Origin: Eledone cirrhosa | Lineage: Eukaryota | Direction of reading: 5' to 3' | Assembly: GCA_964016885.1 (NCBI GenBank) | Contig: OZ024740.1 | Coordinates: 14,012,001 to 14,076,000 of the forward strand | DNA length: 64,000 nt | Shown: one piece after another, positions 21,001-58,535 of the stretch | Layout of the letters: each line of letters starts with the position of its first letter | How positions within the stretch are numbered: the first letter of the stretch is position 1 | Program-made: the position numbers and the translations under genes | The notes under the pieces: model-generated | What the model saw: the letters and a program-made list of their open reading frames with translations, nothing else | What the model was told of the DNA's origin: nothing | Database searches by the model: none

Positions 21001-21432
21001 AGGGATAGGGTGGTATGGTAGAGATAGGGTGGTGTGGCAGAGATAGGGTGGTATGGCAGAGATAGGATGGTGTGGTAGAGATAGGGTGGTATGGTAGAGA
21101 TAGAGTGGTATGTTAGAGACAGGGTGGTATGGTAGAGTTAGGTTTGTATGGTAGAGATAGGGTGGTGTGGTAGAGATAGGATGGTATGGTAGAGATAGGG
21201 TGGTATGGCAGAGATAGGGTGGTATGGTAGAGATAGGGTGGTATGGTCGAGATAGGGTGGTATGGTAGAGATAGGGTGGTGTGGTAGAGATAGGATGGTG
21301 TGGTAGAGATAGGGTGGTATGGTAGAGATAGGGTGGTATGGTAGAGATAGGGTGGTATGGTAGAGATATGGTTGAATGGTAGAGATAGGGTGGTGTGGTA
21401 GAGCTAGGGTGGTATGGTAGAGATAGGGTGGT
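1..21432 (+). repeat. 19-bp G-rich minisatellite/satellite array, consensus RTGGYAGAGATAGGGTGGT
   Basis: The unit is directly visible. A unit starts at base 1 and the last ends at 21432 = 1128 x 19. The array runs off the left edge of the window. Confidence 0.98.
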
Positions 21433-23242: not shown

Positions 23243-23523
23243 TATGTGATTAAAAACTTTTTTGTATAGCAAACCATGTAAACCTTCTTTCCTGATTTAT
23301 ATATATATATATATATATTGTTATACTTGGGGAGGGTCATATTTGTGTAATATTGCCAGAATTAATAACGGAACACACTCACTGTTTGGTTGGTTTTCGC
23401 TTTTCACTTCTGTGTTTTTTATATCGGTAATCTAATTTATTCGGTCCTCAATGTTGCCATTGACTGACCAACGGTCAAAAATAATACAGATACAATTTAG
23501 ACACAAACACATATATATAGTTT

Positions 23524-23565
23524 ATCAAAGTTCTTTCGTTGCACATCTGCAACATCGTCAGTGGT
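23524..23565 (-). ncRNA. Minimal type I hammerhead ribozyme motif in inverted pLTR (family A)
   Basis: Minus strand: acca-CTGACGA-t-gttgca/tgcaac-GAAA-gaac-TT-tgat. Confidence 0.7.
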
Positions 23566-23863
23566 GCTATTGTTTCCTCCCGTTGCATTGTATTTTCTAC
23601 GCCATCTTTATTTAGTCTGTTTATATATTTATTTATTGTTTATTTTATTTTGTCTATGCGCATGCGTTTGCGTGTGTGTATAGTGTTTTGTTTGATGTGT
23701 GTTCGTGATTGGGTGACTGTGTATTGGTTAATGTATTCTATCTTTACTAGTGTGTGTTTATATGTGTTTGTTGTTATTGTGCTTGCGTATGTATTTATTT
23801 ATTTATTTATGTATATATATATATATATGGCAATAGAAGAGGTAAATATTTAAATCGTATGGC

Positions 23864-25305
23864 TAAAAAGACTCCCATGGGAAGGTGGATTGGGTGGACC
23901 AAAGCTATAAGGACCCCCCAAAACAATGATCAGGTAAGAAAAATGGTCGCACATGCAATAGGGGCTAGTATCAAAACTACCCTAAAGGGCCACATATTCA
24001 AGTTCAACGAGATCTACACCCAAAATGAGGGAGCAGCCATTGGCGTCAGCATAGCTGGTGATGTTGCCAACCTTTTTATGGTATGGTGGGAAAGGAGACT
24101 TAAAGATCTCCTTAATGAGAGCTCCATAGACCTCATCATGTACTCTCGTTACGTAGACGATATCAATATAGTTATAAGAACATCCCCACTAGAGAGCACT
24201 AACTAGTTTGATTTAGAACGTAGCACAATGGAAAGCATCCAGCAGATAGCTAATTCCATACACCAGAGTATAACTGTAACTATCGACTACCCTTCCAAAC
24301 ACCCTAACAATAGACTACCTGTATTAGACACGGAACTCTGGATTAACACTATAGACGAGAGAGCCCAAATTCTCCACTCACACTATGCTAAACCCATGGC
24401 CTCCAAATACCTGATACTCAAAAACTCAGCAATGTCCAGTAGTGCTAAGTTTAATATTCTGATCGCAGATTTGGTACGAGTGATGAAGAATGTGTCCCGC
24501 ATGTGCGACCAACAGAAATGGAAAGACACATCCAACACTTCATCAACCGCATGCAGTTCTCTGGCTACAACCAAAGAGACAGAGTCAGAGTATACGAAGG
24601 AGCCATGGAGAATTATAAGACCCTCATAGAACTGGACATGAAAGGAATTTGCCCATTACACAGGAGCAAATCATGGAATAGCTTAGATAGGGCTAGACAT
24701 AAGATAGGGAAAGCCACCTCATGGTACGACAACCAAAGATACCAGAGTGTCATGTTTGTGGACGCTACCCCTTGAGGGAAATTAGCTAACCAGTGTAGAA
24801 AGGCCCTGAGAAAGACCCACTTAAAGATTAAGGTGGTAGAAAAGCCAGGAACCACCATAAAATCCCTGATCAGCAAAACCTACCGTTTTAAGAAAACCCA
24901 CTGTACCAATAGGAAATGTATCATATATAAGGTGAACCCCCGGATAAACTGTAAAACTAGAAACGTAGTCTATAGCATAAGATGTACAGAGGGTACTTGC
25001 AGAAACATGACAACAACATACATAGGTGAGACAGCTCGTAGCATAGGTGAAAGGATAGACCAACACTGGGGGGAACTAAAAGGACGAAAAACGGGTCAAT
25101 ACTATACGAACATGCTAGACAACAACATGACGGTAACATAGACAACATAGAAATTAGAATAATATCTAAACATAGAAATGACCCAGCAGATAGGCAAATC
25201 AGAGAGGCCAATGAAATAGAACTTAGAAGGCCAAGACTAAACAGAAAGAATGAATGGAATAACAACAACACCCAAACAAACAACACTGACCTAAGAGAAG
25301 TATAA
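23864..25305 (+). pseudogene. PLE reverse transcriptase C-half plus GIY-YIG endonuclease, disrupted by stops and frameshifts
   Basis: ORF pieces carry GAAIGVSIAGDVANLFM, YSRYVDD, LPVLD, a Cys-rich linker and NVVYSIRC...YIGETARSIGER. Confidence 0.92.
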
Positions 25306-25561
25306 ATAAATAAATAAATAAATAAATAAATACATACACAAGCACAATAACAACAAACACATAAACACACACTAGTAAAGATAGAATACATTAACCAATA
25401 CACAGTCACCCAATCACGAACATACATCAAACAAAACACTATACACACACGCAAACGCATGCGCAAAGACAAAATAAAATAAACAAATAAATAAATATAT
25501 AAACAGACTACATAAATAAAGATGGCGTAGAAAATACAATGTAACGGGAGGAAACAATAGC

Positions 25562-25603
25562 ATCACTGACGATGTTGCAGATGTGCAACGAAAGAACTTT
25601 GAT
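25562..25603 (+). ncRNA. Minimal type I hammerhead ribozyme motif in pLTR (family A)
   Basis: atca-CTGACGA(25566)-t-gttgca gatg tgcaac-GAAA(25590)-gaac-TT-tgat. Confidence 0.75.
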
Positions 25604-26189
25604 AAACTATATATATGTGTTTGTGTCTAAATTGTATCTGTATTATTTTTGACCGTTGGGCAGTCAATGGCAACATTGAGGACCGAATAAATTAGAATAC
25701 CGATATAAAAGACACAGAAGCGAAAAGCGAAAACCAACCAAACAGTGAGTGTGTTCTGTTATTAATTCTGGCAATATTACACAAATATGACCCTCCCCAA
25801 ATATAACAATATTTGCTTCGACACACGATTTCATATAAAAAACCTTGCAAAACTAATTCATCGCCGTTATATATACATATATATATATATGAGCGGAACA
25901 AGTAAACATTAACCAATCTTTTAAATAAATTAAAATAAGATTTAAATATTTACCTCTTCTATTCCCATGACCGACGCTTCCGCTTATCAAAAGATTGGAA
26001 ATCAGAGAATTTCCAATGGAAAGATATAGCTCTTCAGATAGCTTTTCCACACTTACTAGATATAAATCCAAGTAAGTAGATGTATCGCTTTCTGCCCGGT
26101 GAATGAATCAAGCCGTTAAAATGACCCACACACAAATAGGCCGTAAGGAAAGCGGGAACTATAGACTCGTTGATATTTCATGTTACTAG

Positions 26190-26432
26190 AAATCGTAAGG
26201 GACCATATTCGCTAGGGTGAAAAATATACTAACTATTAACAATATGGTTTGCCAGACTTTATTTTAAATTGAGGACTGGCAAACCATATTGTTAATACTT
26301 AGTATTTTTTTCACCCTAGCGAATATGGTCCTTTACAATTTGAACACATGTATGTTTATATCTGTGTTTATCTCTCTTTTATATTCAATTATATTACACG
26401 GCTCAGAAAAACCTCTTTCTTTAAGCTATTTA
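26190..26432. mobile_element. Fold-back remnant of family F (same family as 42315-42755)
   Basis: Hairpin at 26190-26341 (AAATCGTAAGGGACC..CGCTAGGGTGAAAA and its reverse complement). 26290-26432 matches the reverse complement of about 42315-42456. Confidence 0.75.
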
Positions 26433-29853: not shown

Positions 29854-29900
29854 TACGCTTAACCACGAGATGAAACACAATATGAGTAACAGTCTCAGGG

Positions 29901-30955
29901 GTGACGCTAACCACCCCAGGACCGACGACCCCAACCGCAGGACACGTGGGGGGGGGGGGGGTACCACCCCACGATAGATCTCCCAGCGCGGGCGACGACC
30001 ACCCCATAGATTCGGGCCGTGAAGATAACAAAAAGCATAGCTCCCAAAGGGGAAGCAACAGTGCGGGAACCACCAGCAACTCAACAAATCTCCAACAAAT
30101 CATGACGCACCCGACCCCCACATATAGGAGGAGACACCGAAAAATCATGTGGTACAACCCACCCTACTCAGCGGCCCTAAAGAACAGCTTGGCCCGATCA
30201 TTCTTTGGAGCACTTGATAAATGCTTCCTGAGGGACCATAGATACCACAGGATCTTCAACAGACACACTGTGAAGTTCTCGTATTCCACCACGAGAAATC
30301 TGGCCCAACACATAGCTAGCATCAACAGGAGTAGGCTTAAAAACCACACACAACCAGAAGATGGCAAAACAAGCACTCAGCAGAACCATGTGAAAGGAGG
30401 GAAGGAGGGACCCAGAGCCACCCAAGAAACCCAAACAGACCCGGGGACCCCCCACCGTGCCTGGGGGAAGACCAACATATAACACATAACGGGAACCCTA
30501 ATCTAGGCACGCAGAGGTCGACCACCCTCTGCAACTGCAGAAACCTCGAATCATGCCCCCTTGGTAATGAATGCCTCAAGAAGAACCTAGTATACGGTTG
30601 TAGGGTTAAAACCTCCAACTCCTAACACCTCTACATAGGAGCCACATCAACGAGCTTTAAAGACCGCTGGTACAACCAACGCGATTCATTCAATAAGGAG
30701 GCCGAAAGGAAAAGCACGGCTCTCTCCGACCTGATCTGGAAGCTTAAGCTGGACAGGACCCCGTACTCTCTGGCCTGGTACATAATCAGGAAAGTACCAC
30801 CCGATAAAGGGGGATCTTGCATATGCAAACTATGCCTGAACGAGACCCTCGAGATACTAAGAGGTGGAAGCGGCCTGATAAACCTCAGAACCGACTTCTT
30901 CGGGACATGCAGACACCTTAGAGCCGGGACCTTCCTCAAGATATATGGACAGTAG
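29901..30955 (+). pseudogene. PLE thumb/linker plus GIY-YIG endonuclease remnant
   Basis: WYNPPYS...HRIFNRHTVKFSYSTTRN. In another frame from 30530, my translation gives CNCRNLESCPLGNECLKKNLVYGC..*..YIGATSTSFKDRWYN...CKLCLNE, with a stop at 30953-30955. Confidence 0.88.
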
Positions 30956-32143
30956 CAACACAAGAAGATGTGAACTCCCCCAAGCTATAGGGACTTCTAC
31001 AGAAAATGTAAACACCTCTCGGCCAGACCCCCCTCAAGCTATATGGGCAGTAACAACACCCTAGGTTGTGAACTCCCCTCAAGCCATAGGGAACAACCCA
31101 GGCTGAGCAGACACCATGATAGCCTAGAGATTGAATCGGACACAGCCATTATAATTTGGCCAACATCTATATAACACAAACACATTTTAATTTACTTGAT
31201 TTCTGATTTTCAAGTTCCAATTTTAAATCTTGATTTCTCTTTATTAATTTGTTATTTGTTTTCTGCCCTCTTCACTGTATCACCTTATATTTATTTTTAA
31301 GTTGAGATTGATTATAATACAAACACATTTAGTTTGATTATCTTATTTTAACATCTTGTCCCTCATACCAATCTATCCAACATATTTCTGACCTTGAGAT
31401 TGGTTATAGCACACACACACTTTATCCTACTTTATTTTAATCTTCATTTTATTTTTCACTTCTCCATATTCATTTTCATTACTTTTTCCCCAATTTTTCA
31501 TTTATTCTTTATTCTTTATTCTCTATTTATTATTTATTTTCTGTTTTCTTCATTTATTGCCTTATATTTCTTCATATACATGGAAGAACCCCCCCCACCA
31601 CCACCACCACCACCACCACTATGAGAGATGGTGGCAGGAGGGATGAAGAAAAAACACACACAGATACATCTAAATTGTCAGCAGCAGCAGCAAGACATAA
31701 GCTGACCACAACACCAACAACACTACCGAAATAATGGTAGAGGTCAAATGTACTTAACAATAGCAAACACAAACACCACAGAGAGCCTCACCCCAAAAAG
31801 AATTCTATAGACTTCCGACTGAGGAATGCTCTCAAAACTGACCAATGGGAAGTTTGACACTTTTTTTTTGTTATTTTGTTCCTTTACCACCTTGTTCCTT
31901 CTACCAATTTATCAATTTTTTAAGCTAACTCCAACAATAACAACACTTAGAATGAGGAATGTTCTAACAACTGACCAATGAGAGGAAAAGAGGCCCTTTG
32001 ACACTGAAATTCGTTTGTTTGAATTCATATGATTCCAGTTCCTCAGAGAAATAACAGCCTAACCAGGAACTGGACATATCAGAGTATTGACAAAATTATA
32101 CACCTCAACAACATATGTACTTGTCTATACCACACTAATTCGG

Positions 32144-32198
32144 ACTGCCTGAAGAGGTCACAGCCAAAGATGGCTGTCACTGAAATATATATAGCAGT
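32144..32198 (+). ncRNA. Type I hammerhead ribozyme motif
   Basis: actgc-CTGAAGA(32149)-..acagcca aaga tggctgt..-GAAA(32182)-tatata-TA-gcagt. Confidence 0.75.
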
Positions 32199-32248
32199 AA
32201 TAAACGAAGCTAAATTTAAAACATTTGACTTTTTATTTAACTTTATTT

Positions 32249-32307
<59 letters not shown>

Positions 32308-32312
<5 letters not shown>

Positions 32313-35300
32313 TAAGTTAAAGTGTACATCTACATATGTATACGGAAGTATTAGTATGCATATAAATACACACATGTATACATATGTACATGTACTCAGC
32401 TTTTCACTAGACACTTTACAGTGAGTGTCAGCTAGTCTGTATGTAACCACACAGGCGGACCGGGTTTTAGAGTCATACGAGTTTTCAAGGAAACACATTT
32501 CCTCTATTCTCCAGAGGGCCAGACAGGAATATTGGACTAGTTTCGATGTTATTACATCTCATCAGCAATATTTACCCATCTTCCGGCTTCTCTGGAGAAT
32601 TGTAAAAGCACATATCGTTATATGATATTTCTATGAAAATTAGTAGTGGGTAGACTAATTTGCATAGAACGTGAGTCATTGTACGCACCGGTTCAGCGGA
32701 AACGATAAAAACAAATAACGAAACGAAATTAAATTTCGTTTCGCTTCTAACTCACTTTTGTATGACTGACGCTTAAATAATTAAGTTAAAGTGTACATCT
32801 ACATATGTATACGGAAGTATTAGTATGCATATAAATACACACATGTATACATATGTACATGTACTCAGCTTTTCACTAGACACTTTACAGTGAGTGTCAG
32901 CTAGTCTGTATGTAACCACACAGGCGGACCGGGTTTTAGAGTCATACGAGTTTTCAAGGAAACACATTTCCTCTATTCTCCAGAGGGCCAGACAGGAATA
33001 TTGGACTAGTTTCGATGTTATTACATCTCATCAGCAATATTTACCCATCTTCCGGCTTCTCTGGAGAATTGTAAAAGCACATATCGTTATATGCTTTTTC
33101 TATGAAAATTAGTAGTGGGTAGACTAATTTGCATAGAACGTGAGTCATTGTACGCACCGGTTCAGCGGAAACGATAAAAACAAATAACGAAACGAAATTA
33201 AATTTCGTTTCGCTTCTAACTCACTTTTGTATGACTGACGCTTAAATAATTAAGTTAAAGTGTACATCTACATATGTATACGGAAGTATTAGTATGCATA
33301 TAAATACACACATGTATACATATGTACATGTACTCAGCTTTTCACTAGACACTTTACAGTGAGTGTCAGCTAGTCTGTATTTAACCACACAGGCGGACCG
33401 GGTTTTAGAGTCATACGAGTTTTCAAGGAAACACATTTCCTCTATTCTCCAGAGGGCCAGACAGGAATATTGGACGAGTTTCGATGTTATTACATCTCAT
33501 CAGCAATATTTACCCATCTTCCGGCTTCTCTGGAGAATTGTAAAAGCACATATCGTTATATGCTTTTTCTATGAAAATTAGTAGTGGGTAGACTAATTTG
33601 CATAGAACGTGAGTCATTGTACGCACCGGTTCAGCGGAAACGATAAAAACAAATAACGAAACGAAATTAAATTTCGTTTCGCTTCTAACTCACTTTTGTA
33701 TGACTGACGCTTAAACAATTAAGTTAAAGTGTACATCTACATATGTATACGGAAGTATTAGTATGCATATAAATACACACATGTATACATATTTACATGT
33801 ACTCAGCTTTTCACTAGACACTTTACAGTGAGTGTCAGCTAGTCTGTATGTAACCACACAGGCGGACCGGGTTTTAGAGTCATACGAGTTTTCAAGGAAA
33901 CACATTTCCTCTATTCTCCAGAGGGCCAGACAGGAATATTGGACTAGTTTCGATGTTATTACATCTCATCAGCAATATTTACCCATCTTCCGGCTTCTCT
34001 GGAGAATTGTAAAAGCACATATCGTTATATGCTTTTTCTATGAAAATTAGTAGTGGGTAGACTAATTTGCATAGAACGTGAGTCATTGTACGCACCGGTT
34101 CAGCGGAAACGATAAAAACAAATAACGAAACGAAATTAAATTTCGTTTCGCTTCTAACTCACTTTTGTATGACTGACGCTTAAATAATTAAGTTAAAGTG
34201 TACATCTACATATGTATACGGAAGTATTAGTATGCATATAAATACACACATGTATACATATGTACATGTACTCAGCTTTTCACTAGACACTTTACAGTGA
34301 GTGTCAGCTAGTCTGTATTTAACCACACAGGCGGACCGGGTTTTAGAGTCATACGAGTTTTCAAGGAAACACATTTCCTCTATTCTCCAGAGGGCCAGAC
34401 AGGAATATTGGACGAGTTTCGATGTTATTACATCTCATCAGCAATATTTACCCATCTTCCGGCTTCTCTGGAGAATTGTAAAAGCACATATCGTTATATG
34501 CTTTTTCTATGAAAATTAGTAGTGGGTAGACTAATTTGCATAGAACGTGAGTCATTGTACGCACCGGTTCAGCGGAAACGATAAAAACAAATAACGAAAC
34601 GAAATTAAATTTCGTTTCGCTTCTAACTCACTTTTGTATGACTGACGCTTAAACAATTAAGTTAAAGTGTACATCTACATATGTATACGGAAGTATTAGT
34701 ATGCATATAAATACACACATGTATACATATTTACATGTACTCAGCTTTTCACTAGACACTTTACAGTGAGTGTCAGCTAGTCTGTATGTAACCACACAGG
34801 CGGACCGGGTTTTAGAGTCATACGAGTTTTCAAGGAAACACATTTCCTCTATTCTCCAGAGGGCCAGACAGGAATATTGGACTAGTTTCGATGTTATTAC
34901 ATCTCATCAGCAATATTTACCCATCTTCCGGCTTCTCTGGAGAATTGTAAAAGCACATATCGTTATATGCTTTTTCTATGAAAATTAGTAGTGGGTAGAC
35001 TAATTTGCATAGAACGTGAGTCATTGTACGCACCGGTTCAGCGGAAACGATAAAAACAAATAACGAAACGAAATTAAATTTCGTTTCGTTTCTAACTCAC
35101 TTTTGTATGACTGACGCTTAAATAATTAAGTTAAAGTGTACATCTACATATGTATACGGAAGTATTAGTATGCATATAAATACACACATGTATACATATG
35201 TACATGTACTCAGCTTTTCACTAGACACTTTACAGTGAGTGTCAGCTAGTCTGTATGTAACCACACAGGCGGACCGGGTTTTAGAGTCATACGAGTTTTC

Positions 35301-38300
35301 AAGGAAACACATTTCCTCTATTCTCCAGAGGGCCAGACAGGAATATTGGACGAGTTTCGATGTTATTACATCTCATCAGCAATATTTACCCATCTTCCGG
35401 CTTCTCTGGAGAATTGTAAAAGCACATATCGTTATATGCTTTTTCTATGAAAATTAGTAGTGGTTAGACTAATTTGCATAGAACGTGAGTCATTGTACGC
35501 ACCGGTTCAGCGGAAACGATAAAAACAAATAACGAAACGAAATTAAATTTCGTTTCGCTTCTAACTCACTTTTGTATGACTGACGCTTAAACAATTAAGT
35601 TAAAGTGTACATCTACATATGTATACGGAAGTATTAGTATGCATATAAATACACACATGTATACATATGTACATGTACTCAGCTTTTCACTAGACACTTT
35701 ACAGTGAGTGTCATCTAGTCTGTATGTAACCACACAGGCGGACCGGGTTTTAGAGTCATACGAGTTTTCAAGGAAACACATTTCCTCTATTCTCCAGAGG
35801 GCCAGACAGGAATATTGGACTAGTTTCGATGTTATTACATCTCATCAGCAATATTTACCCATCTTCCGGCTTCTCTGGAGAATTGTAAAAGCACATATCG
35901 TTATATGCTTTTTCTATGAAAATTAGTAGTGGGTAGACTAATTTGCATAGAACGTGAGTCATTGTACGCACCGGTTCAGCGGAAACGATAAAAACAAATA
36001 ACGAAACGAAATTAAATTTCGTTTCGCTTCTAACTCACTTTTGTATGACTGACGCTTAAACAATTAAGTTAAAGTGTACATCTACATATGTATACGGAAG
36101 TATTAGTATGCATATAAATACACACATGTATACATATGTACATGTACTCAGCTTTTTACTAGACACTTTACAGTGAGTGTCAGCTAGTCTGTATGTAACC
36201 ACACAGGCGGACCGGGTTTTAGAGTCATACGAGTTTTCAAGGAAACACATTTCCTCTATTCTCCAGAGGGCCAGACAGGAATATTGGACTAGTTTCGATG
36301 TTATTACATCTCATCAGCAATATTTACCCATCTTCCGGCTTCTCTGGAGAATTGTAAAAGCACATATCGTTATATGCTTTTTCTATGAAAATTAGTAGTG
36401 GGTAGACTAATTTGCATAGAACGTGAGTCATTGTACGCACCGGTTCAGCGGAAACGATAAAAACAAATAACGAAACGAAATTAAATTTCGTTTCGCTTCT
36501 AACTCACTTTTGTATGACTGACGCTTAAATAATTAAGTTAAAGTGTACATCTACATATGTATACGGAAGTATTAGTATGCATATAAATACACACATGTAT
36601 ACATATGTACATGTACTCAGCTTTTCACTAGACACTTTACAGTGAGTGTCAGCTAGTCTGTATGTAACCACACAGGCGGACCGGGTTTTAGAGTCATACG
36701 AGTTTTCAAGGAAACACATTTCCTCTATTCTCCAGAGGGCCAGACAGGAATATTGGACGAGTTTCGATGTTATTACATCTCATCAGCATTATTTACCCAT
36801 CTTCCGGCTTCTCTGGAGAATTGTAAAAGCACATATCGTTATATGCTTTTTCTATGAAAATTAGTAGTGGTTAGACTAATTTGCATAGAACGTGAGTCAT
36901 TGTACGCACCGGTTCAGCGGAAACGATAAAAACAAATAACGAAACGAAATTAAATTTCGTTTCGCTTCTAACTCACTTTTGTATGACTGACGCTTAAACA
37001 ATTAAGTTAAAGTGTACATCTACATATGTATACGGAAGTATTAGTATGCATATAAATACACACATGTATACATATGTACATGTACTCAGCTTTTCACTAG
37101 ACACTTTACAGTGAGTGTCAGCTAGTCTGTATGTAACCACACAGGCGGACCGGGTTTTAGAGTCATACGAGTTTTCAAGGAAACACATTTCCTCTATTCT
37201 CCAGAGGGCCAGACAGGAATATTGGACTAGTTTCGATGTTATTACATCTCATCAGCAATATTTACCCATCTTCCGGCTTCTCTGGAGAATTGTAAAAGCA
37301 CATATCGTTATATGCTTTTTCTATGAAAATTAGTAGTGGGTAGACTAATTTGCATAGAACGTGAGTCATTGTACGCACCGGTTCAGCGGAAACGATAAAA
37401 ACAAATAACGAAACGAAATTAAATTTCGTTTCGCTTCTAACTCACTTTTGTATGACTGAGGCTTAAACAATTAAGTTAAAGTGTACATCTACATATGTAT
37501 ATGGAAGTATTAGTATGCATATAAATACACACATGTATACATATTTACATGTACTCAGCTTTTCACTAGACACTTTACAGTGAGTGTCAGCTAGTCTGTA
37601 TGTAACCACACAGGCGGACCGGGTTTTAGAGTCATACGAGTTTTCAAGGAAACACATTTCCTCTATTCTCCAGAGGGCCAGACAGGAATATTGGACTAGT
37701 TTCGATGTTATTACATCTCATCAGCAATATTTACCCATCTTCCGGCTTCTCCGGAGAATTGTAAAAGCACATATCGTTATATGCTTTTTCTATGAAAATT
37801 AGTAGTGGGTAGACTAATTTGCATAGAACGTGAGTCATTGTACGCACCGGTTCAGCGGAAACGATAAAAACAAATAACGAAACGAAATTAAATTTCGTTT
37901 CGCTTCTAACTCACTTTTGTATGACTGACGCTTAAACAATTAAGTTAAAGTGTACATCTACATATGTATACGGAAGTATTAGTATGCATATAAATACACA
38001 CATGTATACATATGTACATGTACTCAGCTTTTCACTAGACACTTTACAGTGAGTGTCAGCTAGTCTGTATGTAACCACACAGGCGGACCGGGTTTTAGAG
38101 TCATACGAGTTTTCAAGGAAACACATTTCCTCTATTCTCCAGAGGGCCAGACAGGAATATTGGACTAGTTTCGATGTTATTACATCTCATCAGCAATATT
38201 TACCCATCTTCCGGCTTCTCTGGAGAATTGTAAAAGCACATATCGTTATATGCTTTTTCTATGAAAATTAGTAGTGGGTAGACTAATTTGCATAGAACGT

Positions 38301-39210
38301 GAGTCATTGTACGCACCGGTTCAGCGGAAACGATAAAAACAAATAACGAAACGAAATTAAATTTCGTTTCGCTTCTAACTCACTTTTGTATGACTGAGGC
38401 TTAAACAATTAAGTTAAAGTGTACATCTACATATGTATATGGAAGTATTAGTATGCATATAAATACACACATGTATACATATTTACATGTACTCAGCTTT
38501 TCACTAGACACTTTACAGTGAGTGTCAGCTAGTCTGTATGTAACCACACAGGCGGACCGGGTTTTAGAGTCATACGAGTTTTCAAGGAAACACATTTCCT
38601 CTATTCTCCAGAGGGCCAGACAGGAATATTGGACTAGTTTCGATGTTATTACATCTCATCAGCAATATTTACCCATCTTCCGGCTTCTCTGGAGAATTGT
38701 AAAAGCACATATCGTTATATGCTTTTTCTATGAAAATTAGTAGTGGGTAGACTAATTTGCATAGAACGTGAGTCATTGTACGCACCGGTTCAGCGGAAAC
38801 GATAAAAACAAATAACGAAACGAAATTAAATTTCGTTTCGCTTCTAACTCACTTTTGTATGACTGACGCTTAAACAATTAAGTTAAAGTGTACATCTACA
38901 TATGTATACGGAAGTATTAGTATGCATATAAATACACACATGTATACATATGTACATGTACTCAGCTTTTCACTAGACACTTTACAGTGAGTGTCAGCTA
39001 GTCTGTATGTAACCACACAGGCGGACCGGGTTTTAGAGTCATACGAGTTTTCAAGGAAACACATTTCCTCTATTCTCCAGAGGGCCAGACAGGAATATTG
39101 GACTAGTTTCGATGTTATTACATCTCATCAGCAATATTTACCCATCTTCCGGCTTCTCTGGAGAATTGTAAAAGCACATATCGTTATATGCTTTTTTATG
39201 AAAATTAGTA
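32308..39210 (-). repeat. 469-bp tandem array, about 14.7 near-identical units, each carrying a hammerhead ribozyme (retrozyme-like)
   Basis: The ORF track recurs every 469 bp (32425 to 38991, 15 times) and there is an HHR in each unit on the minus strand. Confidence 0.95.
32528..32572 (-). ncRNA. Type I hammerhead ribozyme (first of 15; others at +469n)
   Basis: Minus strand: aatattg-CTGATGA-gatgt aata acatc-GAAA-ctag-TC-caatatt. The core is canonical with a GUC site. Predicted cut is between 32535 and 32534. Confidence 0.9.
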
Positions 39211-39212
39211 TG

Positions 39213-39451
39213 ACTCGTATGACTCTAAAACCCGGTCCGCCTGTGTGGTTACATACAGACTAGCTGACACTCACTGTAAAGTGTCTAGTGAAAAGCTGAG
39301 TACATGTACATATGTATACATGTGTGTATTTATATGCATAGTAATACTTCCGTATACATATGTAGATGTACACTTTAACTTAATTGTTTAAGCCTCAGTC
39401 ATACAAAAGTGAGTTAGAAGCGAAACGAAATTTAATTTCATTTCGTTATTT

Positions 39452-39455
<4 letters not shown>
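39213..39455 (+). repeat. Inverted partial copy of the 469-bp unit capping the array
   Basis: ACTCGTATGACTCTAAAACCCGGTCC...TTCGTTATTTGTTT is the reverse complement of array sequence and is followed by (TA)n. Confidence 0.92.
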
Positions 39456-39489
<34 letters not shown>

Positions 39490-43410: not shown

Positions 43411-43586
43411 AAAAAAGGAAATTTCATTTCTCACTCTAAGTACGGCTGATACTTAAATGTAAGTATGTTAATTATAATAAATGTTCGGTAAACCCATACG
43501 TACATATATATATGTGTGCATGTATGTATATACATACTACTGTACGTCTGTATACATATATGTATGTACGTATACATACTTACATT

Positions 43587-43617
<31 letters not shown>

Positions 43618-44559: not shown

Positions 44560-45303
44560 CATATATATATATATATATATATGTGTGTGATATATATATG
44601 TATATATATATAATATATATATGTGTGTGTGTGTATATATATATATATGCATATATATGTGTGTGTTCGTATATATATAGTTATATATATACATATATTT
44701 ATATATATACATATATATGTACATATACGTATATGTATATATTTATGGCGGCGATGATTTAGTTTTGCGAGTTTTTTTTTTATATGAAATCGTGTGTCGA
44801 AACAAATATTGTTATACTTGGGGAGGGTCATATTTGTGTAATATTGCCAGAATTAATAACAGAACACACTCACTGTTTCGTTGGTTTTCGCTTCTTGCTT
44901 CTGTGTCTTTTATATCGGTAATCTAACCTACTCGGTCCTCAATATGGCCATTGACTGACCGACGGTCAAAAGTAATACAGATACAATATAGACACAAACA
45001 CATATATATAGTTTATCATAAATCTTTCGTTGCACATCTGCAACATCGTCAGTGGTGCTATATTTTCCTCCTGTTGTATTGTATGTCTACGCCATTTTTA
45101 TTCAGTCTGTCTATATATTTATTTATTTATTTTCTTGTTTGTTTATTTTATTTTGTCTTCTTTGCGCATGCGTTTGCGTGTGTGTATAGTGTTTTGTTTG
45201 TTGTGTGATGAGTGACTAGTGTGTGTTTATGTGCTTGTTGTTATTGTGCTTGTGTATGTATTTATATATTTATTTATTTATTTATTTTATTTTATTTATT
45301 TAT

Positions 45304-46751
45304 TTATACTTCTCTTAGGTCAGTGTTGTTTGTTTGGGTGTTGTTGTTATTCCATTCATTCTTTCTGTTTAGCCTTGGTCTTCTAATTTCTATTTCACTG
45401 GCCTCTCTGATTTGCCTATCTGCTGGGTCATTTCTATGTTTAGATATTATTCTAATTTCTATGTTGTCTATGTTACCGTCATGTTGTTGTCTAGCATGTT
45501 CGTATAGTACTGACCCAATTTTTCGTCCTTTTAGTTCCTCCCAGTGTTGGTCTATCCTTTCACCTATGCTACGAGCTGTCTCACCTATGTATGTTGTTGT
45601 CATGTTTCTGCAAGTACCCTCTGTACATCTTATGCTATAGACTACGTTTCTAGTTTTACAGTTTATCCGGGGGTTCACCTTACATATGATACATTTCCTA
45701 TTGGTACAGTGGGTTTTCTTTAAAGGGTAGGTTTTGCTGATCAGGGATTTTATGGTGGTTCCTGGCTTTTCTACCACCTTTATTTTCAAGTGGATCTTTC
45801 TCAGGGCCTTTCTACATTGGTTAGCTAATTTCCCTCCAGGGGTAGCGTCCACAAACATGACACTCTGGTATCTCTGGTTGTCGTACCATGAGGTGGCTTT
45901 CCCTATCTTATGTCTAGCCCTATCTAAGCTATTCCATGATTTGCTCCTGTATAATGGGCAAATTCCTTTCATGTCCAGTTCTATGAGGGTCTTATACTTC
46001 TCCATGGCTCCTTCGTATACTCTGACTCTGTCTCTTTGGTTGTAGCCAGAGAACTGCATGCGGTTGATGAAGTGTTGGATGTGTCTTTCCATTTCTGTTG
46101 GGTCGCACATGCGGGACACATTCTTCATCACTCGTACTAAATCTGCGATCAGAATATCAAACTTAGCACTACTGGACATTGCTCAGTTTTTGAGTATCAG
46201 GTATTTAGAGGCCATGGGTTTATCATAGTGTGAGTGGTGAATTTGGGCTCTCTCGTCTATAGTGTTAATCCAGAGTTCTGTGTCTAATACAGGTAGTCTA
46301 TTGTTAGGGTGTTTGGAAGGGAAGTCGATAGTTACAGTTATACACTGGTGTATGGAATTAGCTATCTGCTGGATGCTTTCCATCGTGCTACGTTCTAAAT
46401 CAAACTTGTTAGTACTCTCTAGTGGAGGTGTTCTTATAACTATATTGATATCGTCTACATAACGAGAGTACATGATGAGGTCTATGGAGCTCTCATTAAG
46501 GAGATCTTTAAGTCTCCTTTCCCACCATACCATGAAAAGGTTGGCAAGATCACCAGCTATGCTGACGCCGATGGCTGCTCCCTCATATTGGGTGTAGATC
46601 TTCTCGTTGAACTTAAATATGTGGCCCTTTAGGGTAGTTTTGATACTAGCCCCTATTGCATGTGCGACCATTTTTCTTACCTGATCATTGTTTTGGGGGG
46701 TCCTTATAGCTTTGGTCCACCCAATCCACCTTCCCATGGGAGTCTTTTTTG
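45304..46751 (-). pseudogene. PLE RT C-half plus GIY-YIG, 5'-truncated and interrupted near 46183
   Basis: ORFs carry YSRYVDD, LPVLD, CTNRKCIIC, NVVYSIRC..YIGETARSIGER and RQIREASEI..PRLN. Confidence 0.93.
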
Positions 46752-47365
46752 GTAGACATAAGATAGGGAAAGCCACCTCATGGTATGACAACCAGAGATA
46801 CCAGAGTGTCATGTTTGTGGACGCTACCCCTGGAGGGAAATTAGCTAACCAGTGTAGAAAGGCCCTGAGAAAGACCCACTTGAAAATAAAGGTGGTAGAA
46901 AAGCCAGGAACCACCATAAAATCCCTGATCAGCAAAACCTACCGTTTTAAGAAAACCCACTGTACCAATAGGAAATGTATCATATATAAGGTGAACGCCC
47001 GGATAAACTGTAAAACTAGAAACGTAGTCTATAGCATAAGATGTACAGAGGGTACTTGCAGAAACATGACAACAACATACATAGGTGAGACAGCACGTAG
47101 CATAGGTGAAAGGATAGACCAACACTGGGGGGAACTAAAAGGACGAAAAACGGGTCAATACTATACGAACATGCTAGACAACAACATGACGGTAACATAG
47201 ACAACATAGAAATTAGAATAATATCTAAACATAGAAATGACCCAGCAGATAGGCAAATCAGAGAGGCCAGTGAAATAGAAATTAGAAGATCAAGGCTAAA
47301 CAGAAAGAATGAATGGAATAACAACAACACCCAAACAAACAACACTGACCTAAGAGAAGTATAAA
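46752..47365 (+). pseudogene. Inverted duplicate of the PLE linker/GIY-YIG region, frameshifted
   Basis: HKIGKATSWY...YIGETARSIGER in ORF 46688-47200. Confidence 0.9.
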
Positions 47366-47857
47366 TAAGTAAATAAAATAAAATAAATAAATAAATACAT
47401 ACACAAGCACAATAACAACAAGCACATAAACACACACTAGTCACCCATCACACAACAAACAAAACACTATACACACACGCAAACGCATGCGCAAAGAAGA
47501 CAAAATAAAATAAACAAACAAGAAAATAAATAAATAAATATATAGAGAGACTGAATAAAAATGGCGTAGACATACAATACAACAGGAGGAAAATATAGCA
47601 CCACTGACGATGTTGCAGATGTGCAACGAAAGATTTATGATAAACTATATATATGTGTGTGTGTCTATATTGTATCTGTATTACTTTTGACTGTCGGTCA
47701 GTCAATGGCAACATTGAGGACCGAGTAAGTTAGATTACCGATATAAAAGACACAGAAGCGAGAAGCGAAAACCAACCATACAGTGAGTGTGTTCTGTTAT
47801 TAATTCTGGCAATATTACACAAATATGACCCTCCCCATATATATTTATGTATTTATG

Positions 47858-47993
<136 letters not shown>

Positions 47994-48082: not shown

Positions 48083-48251
48083 AATATTAATTCAAAATAT
48101 TAACAAAATAGATATTCTTGTGATCAAGTATATTATATTATACATATTTCAGAGGTACTGAGTTAACTTGAACAGTTAACTCAGTACCTCTGAAATATAT
48201 ATAATAAAATATACTTGATCACAAGAATATCTATTTTGTTAATATTTTGAA

Positions 48252-48258
<7 letters not shown>
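48083..48258. repeat. Near-perfect palindrome with arms of about 85 bp (fold-back remnant)
   Basis: The centre is GAGGTACTGAGTTAAC-TTGAACA-GTTAACTCAGTACCTC and the arms extend to AATATTAATTCAAAA / TTTTGAATTAATAT. Confidence 0.9.
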
Positions 48259-48480: not shown

Positions 48481-51295
48481 TCTATATATATATTTCATAA
48501 TGATTAATTTCGAAGTCACAAACTTCGATTTTATAATCTTATAGGCTTTTGCACTAACAAGTTCCATGACGGCCATTAAAGAGAGAGAGCGTTCCTTTTA
48601 CACAGTTCTTAACTCTCCCCCTTCCACAACACGACGTTATGGGATTGTATGTGTATGTGCGTGTGTATATGTGTGTGTATGTGTTTGTGTGTGTATGTGT
48701 GCGTGCATGTGTGTGTGTGTGTGTGTGTAATTTCCATAACGGCCAGAGAGAAGGATGTGTGAGAGGGAGATAGAAAGAGAGGAGGGAGAGAGAGAGAGTA
48801 AAATAAAGAAAGAGAGGAGTGTGTGTGACGCGAATATGATAAATACAGAGTTTATAATTTTAACTTATTTATTACACTTCTTAACTCTCCCCCTTCCACA
48901 ACGTCACGTCTTGGGATTGTGTGTGTATGTGTGTGTGTGTATGTGTGTGTGTTTGTGTGTATGTGTGTATGTTTGTGTGTGTATGTGTTTGTGTGTGTGT
49001 GTACGTGCGTATGTGTGTGCGTGTGTGCATGTGTGTGTATAAATGTGTTAATTGTAAGAAATAACAGACGATACTTTTTATTCAAAAAAATTAAACTCTA
49101 AAGCAGTTTTGATGTCATAAATCATATTTTCAAAGTGAAAATCGTCATTTCTTTAATACTTATTCAGAGGTTGAAATATATTTACTGTTTGTCTTTTGGT
49201 TTTTAATCAAATATTTACACATTGCTCAACCGACACTGCTAAACACGATATTAGCAAAATTATTTTGTAAGTATGAAAATCTAATATATAATTCCCGTGT
49301 AGAAAAAGTAGATGATAAAATATACTTTTTCGTCTTGCTTATTATTACAAAAATTTACACATTGTACACAACTATTTATTTCTTTTAATTGATTTGTATC
49401 AGCTTTATTCAATTACATATTTTCGGTAGAATGCCTCGAAAAAGAAAGAGTAACATTGGAAAAAAAACAAAAAATGCTTTTGCTTTGCGTTCTTTGCGCG
49501 CAAGCGAAACAGAAGAACAATGTGTGCTACGGCGTGCTCGCAATGCTGCTTCTACCTCGATCGCCAGAGCATTACAAACAACTGAACAAGCAGAACTCCG
49601 GCGTGCTCACAATGCTGCCTCTACTTTGAACATCAGAGCATTACAGAAAGCTGAACAAGCAGAACTCCGGCGTGCTCGCAATGCTGCTTCTAATTCCAAT
49701 AGCCGTGTTTTAGAGACTGTTGACCAAAGGGCAACAAGGCTTGCGGCTGATTCTCAACGGAAAATGCGTACTTATGTCTTTCCGAGGGATTCTTCCTGTT
49801 ACTGGTCTAAGAAAGGTTTTCAATACAACCCCCAAGAGGACTACGCATCCCATCCACATATCATCATTGGTAGTATGTCAACTGTTTGCGTCCATTGTAA
49901 TGCAATGAGGTGGCCAGCGGAATCTACCGGTATATGTTGCTCCAATGGAACGGTTAGATTGCCTTATTTACAAGTCGGTGCCGAACCTTTGAATTCTTTG
50001 CTGCTTGGAGACCACCCTGATTCTAAACACTTTTTCAGAAATATAAGAGCCTACAATTCGGCATTCCAAATGACAAGCTTTGGTCATACACCAATAAAAG
50101 ATGGGAATTATATGCCCACATTTAAAGTGCAAGGCCAAATTTACCATCAAATAGGATCACTTATTCCACAAGATGGCAAAGAACACAGTTTTCTCCAGAT
50201 CTACTTTATGGGCAACGGACCTGAAGAAATTGCACGAAGGGCTTCAGTTGCTAAAGGAACGACACCTCTTCTGCAGCCCCTTCAATATATGCTTCATTCC
50301 ATAAACCCGTACATCACCATTTTCAAAACTGCTTTACAACGTAGAGATGCTAACAACAATCAATACGAGGTTGTCATTCGAAATGACCGCGCTCCACCAG
50401 GGCAGCATCAGGGTTGCTTTAATAGACCCCAAACCGATGAAGTTGCGGTGATTATAACATGTCCTAATCAGAGCGCTTCAAACCGTGATATTATTATTGA
50501 ATGGCAGGACTCGCATCTTCAAAAAATAAATGAACTTCATCCCGCATATGATGCTCTCCAGTATCCATTGCTGTTCCCCTTTGGCGACGATGGCTACCGC
50601 ATTGATTTGCAAAAGTGTAATCCTGTAAGTTTAATGCATCTTACACCAGGGAAAACCATTTCACAAATGGAATTTTATGCATTTAGACTTATGTTTCGCA
50701 AAAACGACGTCAACATTCTGCATAGAACACGGATGCTCCTCAATCAATACTGTGTAGACATATTTGCTAAGATTGACACTGAACGCCTCCAATGGATAAG
50801 ACATCATCAAAAGGAACTGCGTTCAGAAGAATACGGCAATCTACGTGACGAAGTAAACCGAAATGATCAGGCTAATGCTTCGGATGTTGGGCTTTCTGTC
50901 ATTATCCCATCATCATACACTGGAGGCCCCCGTTACATGCATGAAAAAATGCAGGATGCTCTGACCTATGTCCGCCATTGTGGCCGTCCTGATCTTTTTA
51001 TCACCTTTACATGACATCCAGTCTCATTTACTGTTTGTCTTTCGGTTATTAATAAAAAAAATTACACATTGTTCAACCGACACGGCTAATGATACATTTC
51101 TCTATGTTCACATTTTAATGACACATATCTGTAAATAAAACTTGCTCTTTTTGAATACCGTCTCATTTTGTTTTATTGAAAGAGTTGATCAGGTAAAATT
51201 ATCCTCCAAGTTAAACATACAACACAGAAATTGACCATTAACATTGCAGCCCTACCAAGAACTGACACCGTCCAATGGACGGGGGTCATTTGCTA

Positions 51296-53152: not shown

Positions 53153-53520
53153 TAGATTCAGCGAGAATCGCATTTCGGCGGGTAGAAATGGCGAAACGAA
53201 ACGCATAAATCAGATATGATACTGGCAAGCGCTCAATAGTTTAAAAACCAGAGCTAAACAATATGTTAAGAGGCCATACAAAACTGAAACACAATCGGTA
53301 CAGTATATGGAAGGGATATATTAGGTTAACGCTTGATATAGCAGGAAGAGGGTCTTAACGTTTTGGACGCTAGTCTTTCACCAGAAGAAAGAATGAGAAA
53401 TAAGATAGATTGAGGGGAAGGGCGGGTTGGAATTGGAAAACATGTCTTTAGATAAGAATAACAGGTCCATTAATGTTGGAGAGTAGTATTGAAGGTACAA
53501 GGGTGGGAGTGAAAAATAGA

Positions 53521-54065: not shown

Positions 54066-54267
54066 GTTTTAATATAGATGAGATTCTACAGGACTAGAAC
54101 TGTTTCATTCATTAGAAATCATCAGGAATCTCAGGGATTCCTGATGATTTCTAATGAATGAAACAGTTCTAGTCCTGTAGAATCTCATCTATATTAAAAC
54201 TGTTATACTCTGCTATGTATTGAGTACCTTACTTACTGTGGTTACCTCCGATTCAACCCGGAATAAC

Positions 54268-54654: not shown

Positions 54655-54755
54655 TGGTACAGTATATAGAAGGAATATTTTAGTTTAACGCTTGAAATAG
54701 CAGGAAGATGGTTTTAACGTTTCGGACGCTAGTCCTTCATCAGAAGAAAAAATGA
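54655..54755 (-). ncRNA. Minimal hammerhead motif (54712-54748) in a short repeat; decayed paralog at 53297-53395
   Basis: Minus strand: CTGATGA-a-ggac tagc gtcc-GAAA-cg-TT/TA. Stem I is weak. Confidence 0.55.
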
Positions 54756-55406: not shown

Positions 55407-55494
<88 letters not shown>

Positions 55495-55965
55495 CGTTTC
55501 TGAATTTGTTTAGCAAGATTCTTTATCTGAAATCGTGTGTTGAAACCGATATTGTTATACTTTGGGAGGGTCATGTTGCCAATAAGAAACACACGCACCA
55601 GTTGCTTTCACTTCAATTTATTATATATTTATAAATTTATAAATTTACAAATCTACAAACTTATACATTTCTGGTTGGTTGGTTGGTTCCACAACCAGAT
55701 AGTTGTTTATATATAGTCATAGTCCTTTCGTCACACACTCTGTGACCTCTTCAGTGACTGGGGATTCCTTTCTTTGTTTCTGTGCCTTTCCTTTCTTCTG
55801 TCCTACGCCATTTTGTTTCTGTGTGTGTGTGTTGTGCGCTCAGTTTGCGCATGCGCCACATCCGGGTGTCTGTGTGTGTTTGTGTTCATTTATCTATTTG
55901 TTTATTTATTTATTTATTGTTGGTTGGTTGTTTGTTCTATGTGTGTGTGTGTTTTCATTTTGTCC

Positions 55966-57330
55966 TTAATTGTAAGTTGTGATGTTGCTGTTCCACTCAT
56001 ATTTTCTATTTAATTTTGGTTGTAATTCTTTTATGCTTACTGCCTCTGTAATTTGCCTAAACATTGCATCCTTTCTGTGTGTGGATGCTATTTTTATTTC
56101 TATGTTCTCTAATTTACCCCTGTGCTCTATCTTAGCATGTTGGTAGAGCACAGATGATTCTTTATTATCTTGAAGGTCTCGCCAGTGTTCATTTATTCGT
56201 TCCCCTATGCTACGAGCTGTCTCACCTATGTACACTATATTTTTGTTTCTACATTATCCTTCAGTACATCTTATGCTATACACTACATTTCTAGTTTTAC
56301 AGTTAATATGGGGGCTTATTTTACAGGTTATACATTTCTTATCTATACATGAGGGTCTTTGGAACGGGTATGTCTTGCTAATAAGTGTTTTTACAGAGGT
56401 ACCTGGTCTTTCTACTATCTTAATATTGAGTTTATGTTTATTTAGGGCCCTTCTAAATTTGTAGGCTAGTTCGCCTCTAGGGGTTGTATTGATGAACATT
56501 ACACTCTGGTATTTATTGCTATCATACCATGAGTTTATTCTATTGGCCTTGTTCCTAGTTCTTTCTATTCTATTCCAAAATTTGCTCCTATACAAGGGGC
56601 AGGTCCCATTTATGTCATTATTTACCATTTTTTCCCATTTGGTTCTGGCTCCTCTATACACTCTGATTCTATCTCTCTGATTATAGCCAGAGAACTGCAT
56701 ACGGTGGATGAAGTGTTGTATGTGTCTCTCTAGTTCTTCGGGGTTGCACATGCGGGACACATTTCTCATCACCCGTACGAAATCCGCAATCAGTATGTTG
56801 ATTTTGGTATGGTTCGAAATGGCCGAGTTTCGGTGGATCAGATGTTTGGAAGTCATGGGTTTGGCATAATGGGAATGGAGGATTTGTTTTTGGTTGTTAA
56901 TGGTATCTAACCAGAGCTCTGTGTCTAGTACAGGTAATCGATGGTTGGGGTGTCTACTTGGGTAGTCTATAGTAACTCTAATGCTCTGGTGGATGGAGTT
57001 TGCTATTTGCTGGATGCTTTCCATTGTGTTTTTCTCTAGTTCCTGACTGTTCTTTAGTGGGGGTGTCTTAACTACGATGTTTATATCATCTACGTAGCGG
57101 GAGTACATTATCAGGGTTAAGCTGTCTTCTAATTGTTCTTTAAGTTTTTGTTTAAGTCTATTGTCCCACCATACCATGAATAAGTTAGCTATGTCGCCTG
57201 CAATGCTAACAGCAATGGCTGCTCCTTCCTCTTGGGCATATGTTTTACCATTAAATTTGAACATATGTTCCTTAAGGGTTAATTTTATGCTGGCCCCTAC
57301 CGCATGTGCAATCATTTTCTTCAGTTCATC
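55966..57330 (-). pseudogene. PLE RT C-half plus GIY-YIG, with an in-frame TAA at 56254
   Basis: GAAIAVSIAGDIANLFM, YSRYVDD, LPVLD, NVVYSIRC*..YIGETARSIGER. Confidence 0.93.
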
Positions 57331-57397
57331 GTATGTTAGCTCAACAGTATGGAGCAGTTAATACTATCAGAGAGATAGAATCAGAGCAGTTAATACT

Positions 57398-58113
57398 ATC
57401 AGAGAGATAGAATCAGAGTGTATAGAGGAGCCAGAACCAAATGGGAAAAAATGGTAAATAATGACATAAATGGGACCTGCCCCTTGTATAGGAGCAAATT
57501 TTGGAATAGAATAGAAAGAACTAGGAACAAGGCCAATAGAATAAACTCATGGTATGATAGCAATAAATACCAGAGTGTAATGTTCATCAATACAACCCCT
57601 AGAGGCGAACTAGCCTACAAATTTAGAAGGGCCCTAAATAAACATAAACTCAATATTAAGATAGTAGAAAGACCAGGTACCTCCTTAAAAACACTTATTA
57701 GCAAGACATACCCGTTCCAAAGACCCTCATATATAGATAAGAAATGTATAACCTGTAAAAGAAGCCCCCATATTAACTGTAAAACTAGAAATGTAGTGTA
57801 TAGCATAAGATGTACTGAAGGATAATGTAGAAACAAAAATATAGTGTACATAGGTGAGACAGCTCGTAGCATAGGGGAACGAATAAATGAACACTGGCGA
57901 GACCTTCAAGATAATAAAGAATCATCTGTGCTCTACCAACATGCTAAGATAGAGCACAGGGGTAAATTAGAGAACATAGAAATAAAAATAGCATCCACAC
58001 ACAGAAAGGATGCAATGTTTAGGCAAATTACAGAGGCAGTAAGCATAAAAGAATTACAACCAAAATTAAATAGAAAATATGAGTGGAACAGCAACATCAC
58101 AACTTACAATTAA
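57398..58113 (+). pseudogene. Inverted duplicate of the family B linker/GIY-YIG
   Basis: ORFs 57418-57825 and 57844-58113 mirror the minus-strand copy, including the same stop. Confidence 0.9.
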
Positions 58114-58319
58114 GGACAAAATGAAAACACACACACACATAGAACAAACAACCAACCAACAATAAATAAATAAATAAACAAATAGATAAATGAACACAAA
58201 CACACACAGACACCCGGATGTGGCGCATGCGCAAACTGAGCGCACAACACACACACACAGAAACAAAATGGCGTAGGACAGAAGAAAGGAAAGGCACAGA
58301 AACAAAGAAAGGAATCCCC

Positions 58320-58364
58320 AGTCACTGAAGAGGTCACAGAGTGTGTGACGAAAGGACTATGACT
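58320..58364 (+). ncRNA. Minimal type I hammerhead in family B pLTR (mirror copy at 55715-55759 on the minus strand)
   Basis: agtca-CTGAAGA(58325)-g-gtcaca gagtg tgtgac-GAAA(58350)-ggac-TA-tgact. Confidence 0.82.
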
Positions 58365-58535
58365 ATATATAAACAACTATCTGGTTGTGGAACCAACCAA
58401 CCAACCAGAAATGTATAAGTTTGTAGATTTGTAAATTTATAAATTTATAAATATATAATAAATTGAAGTGAAAGCAACTGGTGCGTGTGTTTCTTATTGG
58501 CAACATGACCCTCCCAAAGTATAACAATATATATA

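Follow-up and report, generated by a model that had tools for sequence, protein, structure and literature searches.

Two-armed insertions of a non-LTR retrozyme in Eledone cirrhosa point to mobilisation by a Penelope-like element

The 64,000-nucleotide stretch of the Eledone cirrhosa genome analysed here (the window) contains a non-LTR retrozyme, an element of a known class, and 32309-39455 is a single insertion of it, composed of two back-to-back arms. The original prediction of a retrozyme was supported by the anatomy of the insertions, by covariation of the hammerhead stems and by genome-wide dispersal. The element shows the features of the class: a type I hammerhead core in each unit, short tandem non-coding units, dispersal in many copies and no LTRs. 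Because the anatomy of the insertions is identical to that of coding insertions of Penelope-like elements (PLEs), we assign the enzyme that made them to the PLE class, with high confidence. The complete account, in which a young, non-autonomous retrozyme is mobilised by a PLE through priming of two target strands on a circular RNA, is in our judgement likely.

The class and the PLE hypothesis are already in print. So far, arguments on the mode of spread of animal retrozymes (by PLE, by LINE or by satellite drift) have drawn on co-occurrence and on the similarity of terminal repeats, and the formation of tandem, inverted and tailed PLE insertions is called unresolved in the accessible PLE literature. 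Here, thousands of young insertions fit a precise model with one start site per strand, read-through of the cleavage site and one template for both arms.

The hammerhead array in the window

TRF described the tandem array (32308-39210) as 14.7 copies of a 469-bp period with 99% matches. All 15 predicted minus-strand hammerheads were recovered as type I cores (CTGATGA-stem II-GAAA, at 32565+469n) with a stem II of 5 bp and an AATA loop, and the cut site proposed at 32535/32534 agrees with the position predicted on re-examination. The palindromic stem III stood in 11 of the 15 cores, which carry ACTAGT, but not in units 3, 5, 7 and 10, which carry ACTCGT; the self-duplex of the 6-mer amounts to -4.8 kcal/mol for ACTAGT versus +0.3 kcal/mol for ACTCGT, and unit 10 has a mismatch in stem I besides. 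Rfam Hammerhead_HH9 matched every core, each under the gathering score of 52 (11 cores at 31.8 bits, E 4.6e-4; three at 29.1; one at 24.1). The further hairpins that had been proposed are present in 14-15 units, and the unit has indeed no credible ORF, the longest ATG ORF of the looped 469-nt monomer being 64 aa. The GC content of the unit is ~36%. Folded from cut to cut, the monomer has a z-score of -9.6, and stem I closes it end to end. The features of the insertion are listed in Table 1.

Table 1. Features of the retrozyme insertion and of two-armed PLE fragments in the window
Feature	Position	Strand	Remarks
(TA)n tract, left target flank	32249-32308		Preceded by an unrelated PLE fragment (its 3' end)
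Long arm, 14.7 retrozyme units of 469 nt	32309-39210	-	Fixed site A at the outer end
Extended stem I around the first hammerhead	32495-32610	-	Fold z = -5.1
First hammerhead (type I), with core, inner stem I, stem II of 5 bp and palindromic stem III	32528-32572	-	Rfam, pattern, covariation
Hammerhead repeats every 469 bp	up to 39094-39138	-	Core pattern
A-to-B segment ("tail", ~72 nt) of one unit	32705-32778	-	Contains the hairpin preceding site B
Head-to-head junction	39211-39212		2 nt assignable to neither arm
Short inverted arm, unit positions 53-295	39213-39455	+	Fixed site B at the outer end
(TA)n tract, right target flank	39456-39489		Then the terminal repeat of another PLE
Two-armed PLE fragments	23295-25891, 44722-47870, 55471-58530		Minimal hammerheads in terminal repeats; one short and one tailed end each

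Private variants in the window array recur with a period of two units. An older-subfamily array elsewhere (L126, G000:C1:69.497-69.506 Mb), with ~16+2.5 units of 463 bp, shows a six-unit duplication periodicity. These periodicities indicate later block duplication in both arrays, and the 15 window copies are partly later local duplications rather than all the product of one copying event.

The window also holds an isolated hammerhead-like motif at 54743 (minus strand) with a 4-bp stem II and an AACGTT palindrome, a degenerate second copy of which lies at ~53340-53375. A 19-bp G-rich satellite with more than 1,100 copies and a GC skew of 0.92 occupies 1-21432, interrupted near 21138, and a 541-aa open frame at 49389-51014 (plus strand) contains Helitron_like_N (E 1.3e-26). 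Perfect or near-perfect long palindromes at 54090-54176, 26195-26336 and 48084-48258, with Rfam miRNA matches below gathering, are probably fold-back junctions or MITE-like elements; we dismissed the Rfam miRNA matches in the window as noise from TA hairpins.

Two hammerhead families in the genome

The core pattern had 3,313 matches genome-wide and none in the reversed control, and the hammerhead core is therefore not a chance occurrence. The 469-bp unit matched at least 372 places in the 3.0-Gb genome (39 loci on many contigs scored, of 526 candidates). Restriction to this single locus would have refuted the original prediction, and with 3,313 cores the family is clearly not so restricted. 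Its subfamilies (family 1) range from 99% to 87% identity. A sister family (family 2) is far more numerous, with 30,240 cores versus four in the control, which brings the two families together to more than 33,000 hammerheads in this genome. Family 2 is colinear with family 1 at ~60% identity; it has units of 422-538 bp (e.g., L200:1500-1923 and L189:1994-2477), a GUA cleavage triplet and a variable (TA)n loop within a long hairpin. The core had no match in JGI metagenomes, and none of 33 loose matches in IMG/VR was similar to the element.

Stems I and II covary between the families, with both-sided changes in 10 of 22 pairs among 10 units. The covariation score was reached by none of 500 shuffles (0.37, versus 0.03-0.11 in slid controls); the structure was drawn from the same alignment, and most of the changes are inherited family differences that amount to a handful of events.

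Anatomy of the insertions

The original prediction overlooked a 243-bp inverted arm directly beyond the array. With unit positions counted from the cut along the ribozyme strand, the long arm of the window insertion has its outer end at position ~226 and its inner end at 359, and both outer ends of the insertion adjoin (TA)n tracts. We mapped insertions in 38 top-scoring loci, in 30 further stretches (29 of them in order along C1) and in the window, leaving out of the count four pieces at locus edges. All 55 two-armed insertions are head-to-head. Their inner ends are random, whereas their outer ends are fixed ~72 nt apart, A at unit position 222-232 and B at 291-301. The ends are paired A+B in 45 cases and A+A or B+B in none, the other 10 having one non-standard end; since L111 and L112 represent one duplicated event, A+B pairing holds in 44 of 54 independent insertions. 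A further 16 insertions, including two tiny fragments, are one-armed. End coordinates alone gave 35 A+B and one A+A among 36 divergent pairs less than 10 kb apart on C1 up to 67 Mb, a sample that overlaps the mapped loci, and the median span of divergent pairs was 1.0 kb. Forward matches to the end patterns (1,198 for A and 1,193 for B) show that the two ends are equally frequent; the reverse-strand counts were inflated by overlapping matches. By these patterns, family 1 comprises roughly 2,400 insertions. Family 2 uses homologous A and B ends (L179, L183) with a tail of ~60 nt, and the motifs at the ends of the tail are conserved in it. A tiny head-to-head family 2 insertion lies in the window at 43440-43590, consisting of a B-arm stub and ~100 bp of A arm with no hammerhead.

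Most ends are flanked by TA, and target duplications of 12-16 bp were found at L048, L051 and L106, whose flanks are not pure TA. Of 35 junctions between arms, 16 have 1-3 nt of microhomology, four are blunt, 13 contain short inserts and two are mapping artefacts; the inserts are mostly retrozyme pieces and not DNA from a source flank. Inner breakpoints vary from locus to locus without recurrence, showing that the junctions were made anew. Either arm may be the longer one, both can exceed four units, and the inner breakpoint of one arm bears no relation to that of the other. On each side, the flank strand reads straight into the complement of the ribozyme strand, from which we infer priming from each nicked strand on ribozyme RNA. 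With an inverted 5'-truncated copy, a tail confined to one end, a (TA)n target and target duplications, the retrozyme insertions show the features of elements mobilised by PLEs.

The template

Of the 114 A or B arms, 104 extend across the cleavage site, 54 at least twice. In young loci, four of the 80 inner ends fell no more than 12 nt from the cut, compared with 4.1 expected; in the same loci, an apparent pile-up at the cut (nine at position 1) was a BLAST edge artefact that vanished on refinement. Because arms run through the cut and no excess of inner ends occurs at it, linear monomers did not serve as the template, which was either circular or an uncut multimer. Among 15 older loci, arms diverged by 1.3% internally and by 1.5% from each other, compared with 4.9% between loci, and 11 locus-private variants were present in every lap covered, most of them in both arms. 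These figures and shared variants indicate that both arms usually derive from one sequence variant. Another 28 private variants were confined to some laps only, and such variants would not be explained by a single circle without later duplication or template jumps.

RNA circles as the template are supported indirectly, through the anatomy of the insertions, and we favour a circle over an uncut multimer with moderate confidence. Stem III is palindromic in 3,243 of the 3,313 family 1 cores, which gives indirect support to the predicted cleavage as dimers. We hold it quite probable that the hammerhead cleaves.

Coding PLEs and hybrid insertions

The 469-nt unit contains no RT or GIY-YIG ORF, and such ORFs were found elsewhere in the genome. 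The element is therefore not an autonomous PLE, and the term replicon used for it earlier was too strong, given that it codes for nothing and that its ends point to reliance on the enzyme of a PLE. In the same genome, PLEs that code for RT plus GIY-YIG are built in the same way as the retrozyme insertions. All three two-armed PLE copies in the window obey the A+B rule, as does L171, and the two-armed build recurs at two Poseidon-like loci. In a Neptune-like family with ~6,000 A ends, 41 of 42 divergent pairs were A+B. The names Neptune-like and Poseidon-like are our presumed clade assignments, based on motifs. The window also contains PLE fragments with a C-terminal GIY-YIG at 29886-32249 and 59969-62145; the former carries, at 32149, a hammerhead whose stem III is palindromic, and it stops at the TA tract that received the retrozyme. 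The PLE family at 45304-46182 has many copies with 97-98% protein identity, some with open frames of more than 1,000 aa.

Three loci appear to combine arms of two elements. At L105 (1653-4901, with L232), a retrozyme B arm is joined head-to-head, without TA, to a 5'-truncated Neptune-like PLE copy that is 96% identical to L165 and ends at its A site, a reading that spans 350 bp unseen between L105 and L232. L125 (1567-4581) joins the retrozyme to the same Neptune-like family, but as B+B, and L058 (2977-3795) pairs a family 1 A arm with a family 2 B arm. Any of these hybrids could instead be an insertion with a target deletion beside an older element. L113, which joins another PLE family, was not counted because it is the inverted copy of its neighbour, and L044 was rejected, not being a clean chimera in register. 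When C1 was screened by coordinates from 0 to 63 Mb, no retrozyme end was paired divergently with a PLE end; the screen passes over L105 because the PLE end there is one letter off the pattern.

Among ~8 PLE families (150 of 10,597 GIY-YIG candidates scored), we found no terminal repeat that resembles the unit significantly at the DNA level. Searches with blastn and nhmmer of the unit against the masked window, 43 GIY-YIG loci and 30 Poseidon-like loci returned only separate retrozyme copies and TA-rich noise. Local alignment of the A-B region with nine PLE ends gave best p values of 0.004 and 0.012 in 27 tests, not significant after correction, and these two alignments involve families other than the hybrid-forming one. 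That Neptune-like PLE shows no canonical hammerhead in its 3' region. Three abundant Neptune-like families (L155, L144, L157, L147) show no canonical core of a hammerhead in those 3' regions that we examined, whereas other families here have one. The Neptune-like family of the hybrids is a tentative candidate for the helper, at somewhat less than even odds.

Proposed mechanism and alternative explanations

In the model that we propose, arrays would be transcribed into the ribozyme strand, where, as in known retrozymes, adjacent hammerheads would pair through ACUAGU and cut 469-nt monomers that are ligated into circles. A PLE RT-GIY-YIG protein, probably a dimer, would then bind this RNA near A-B, and both strands of a (TA)n target would be nicked ~12-14 bp apart; the target and its duplication are observed, and the enzyme class is the one that we propose. 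With the ribozyme strand as template, reverse transcription would be primed by one nicked strand at A and by the other at B, and each cDNA would run through the cleavage site and stop at varying distances beyond it, in line with the observed geometry. Joining of the inner cDNA ends by microhomology would give the back-to-back arms with a tail at one end only that are seen in the genome. Some arrays, including that of the window, later grew through local block duplication, as the variant periodicity shows. In a stricter version, to which we give an even chance, an RT-endonuclease dimer simultaneously starts synthesis from both target strands on a single circular ribozyme RNA, with one subunit obligately at each start site and each rolling round the circle. 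If this is true, one mechanism would cover the inverted repeat, the one-end tail and the partial tandems of all endonuclease-bearing PLEs; the insertions would record the PLE integration step and provide direct evidence that the circles of animal retrozymes serve as the intermediate of transposition. For work in vitro, the family offers a substrate of 469 nt, two start sites that have been mapped and a candidate for the helper protein.

The same two-strand PLE insertion could have used an uncut linear multimer from a genomic array, with a weak or later hammerhead and no circle, which we consider unlikely. Variants confined to some laps would agree with such a template; for example, 175T>C occurs in laps 1-2 of both L060 arms and is absent from lap 3. 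In vitro, cleavage is dispensable for PLE insertion, and no reads end at the PLE cut site in the results given in the available text (PMC11167929); only one of nine Xenopus retrozyme dimers was reported to cleave in vitro (bioRxiv 10.64898/2026.07.22.740005). However, most genomic arms have 1-3 units, yet the junction inserts are mostly retrozyme pieces rather than source flank and breakpoints do not recur. Retention of the palindrome and stems across families with ~60% identity implies selection for cleavage, and the partial sharing of variants also fits later duplication, as seen with period 6 in L126 and period 2 in the window.

Priming from a single strand, with the inverted arm arising by fold-back self-priming of the cDNA, from an antisense template or by LINE-type twin priming, appears very improbable. 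A fold-back or antisense origin of the inverted arm has been suggested for PLEs (PMC3846280). The junctions of L113 and L125 do contain short fold-back palindromes, but each arm has its own fixed end, either may be longer, both can pass four units, and their inner breakpoints are unrelated rather than mirror images. LINE products are expected to carry a poly(A) or tandem tail, and the insertions have neither. Hybrids with arms of two elements, if they are single insertions, would need two priming events. We allow a slighter chance still that the array is an ordinary satellite or minisatellite that derived from a PLE terminal repeat and grew by unequal crossover, with the hammerhead as a relic; a model of local satellite amplification is discussed in bioRxiv 10.64898/2026.07.22.740005. 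The two longest arrays, those of the window and L126, show block-duplication patterns, and the palindrome is gone from four of the 15 window cores, both of which speak for this explanation. It is already largely refuted by thousands of dispersed short insertions (median span 1.0 kb) with fixed ends, new junctions and target duplications, and unequal crossover accounts for secondary growth only. Two-strand priming by a PLE enzyme on a circular retrozyme RNA is our preferred explanation.

Comparison with known systems

The two-armed, one-A-one-B anatomy was not found for a retrozyme in the open-access literature, although closed-access papers may hold it, and we did not find a strict one-A-one-B pairing rule stated for PLEs in the open-access texts available (PMC8557442, PMC3846280, PMC11167929). 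The LTR retrozymes of plants, which have type III hammerheads in LTRs and a 4-bp duplication, were rejected as a match because our element has type I topology, tandem units and longer duplications. The metazoan non-LTR retrozymes are similar to it in having tandem non-coding units with one type I hammerhead each, GC below 45%, strong self-pairing and thousands of copies, and axolotl HHR_Amex1 has the same stem III of one pair plus a palindromic tetraloop (PMC7229834). Their units are ~170-400 nt, compared with 469 nt here, and their expression and circles have been demonstrated (PMC7229834), whereas those of our element are predictions. However, the unit is not unusually long as first supposed: the cricket Dolichopoda pDo500, a hammerhead unit described as satellite DNA and comparable to ours in length, measures 463-505 bp (PMC2808323), and consensus lengths of vertebrate retrozymes are 51-972 bp (bioRxiv 10.64898/2026.07.22.740005).

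PLEs were proposed as candidates for mobilising retrozymes from co-occurrence (Cervera and de la Pena 2020, PMC7229834), in a paper whose main text contains neither "inverted" nor "target site". Vertebrate retrozymes, considered PLE derivatives (Li, Clavereau, Pollet, bioRxiv 10.64898/2026.07.22.740005), belong to the same class and have the same PLE link; there, in the available text, the link rests on homology of terminal repeats and on co-distribution, with no analysis of insertion ends, whereas here it rests on insertion anatomy. The non-autonomous Chlamys elements, such as MRC1, travel as passengers of PLEs and form multicopy head-to-tail insertions; their 3' end is similar to that of the autonomous partner, and their clade is described as lacking canonical hammerheads (PMC8557442).

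The closest resemblance is to endonuclease-bearing PLEs themselves. Their insertions have an inverted 5'-truncated copy, a tail often at one end only and a microsatellite bias (PMC8557442), and they share with our element partial tandems, (TA)n bias, target duplications and a hammerhead upstream of two RT start sites (PMC8557442, PMC3846280, PMC11167929). In assays with a PLE protein in vitro, both strands were cut and extended, from two start sites that bound the tail, and the protein has been modelled as a dimer (PMC11167929). The start site did not differ between strands in vitro (PMC11167929); that result leaves the A/B pairing of single events unaddressed and gives it no support. The PLE tail is quoted as 30-40 bp, compared with ~72 nt here and ~60 nt in family 2, and our element has no ORF (PMC8557442, PMC3846280, PMC11167929). 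In contrast to these PLEs (PMC8557442, PMC3846280, PMC11167929), the retrozyme arms run for several laps, so that two priming events can be read from a single insertion.
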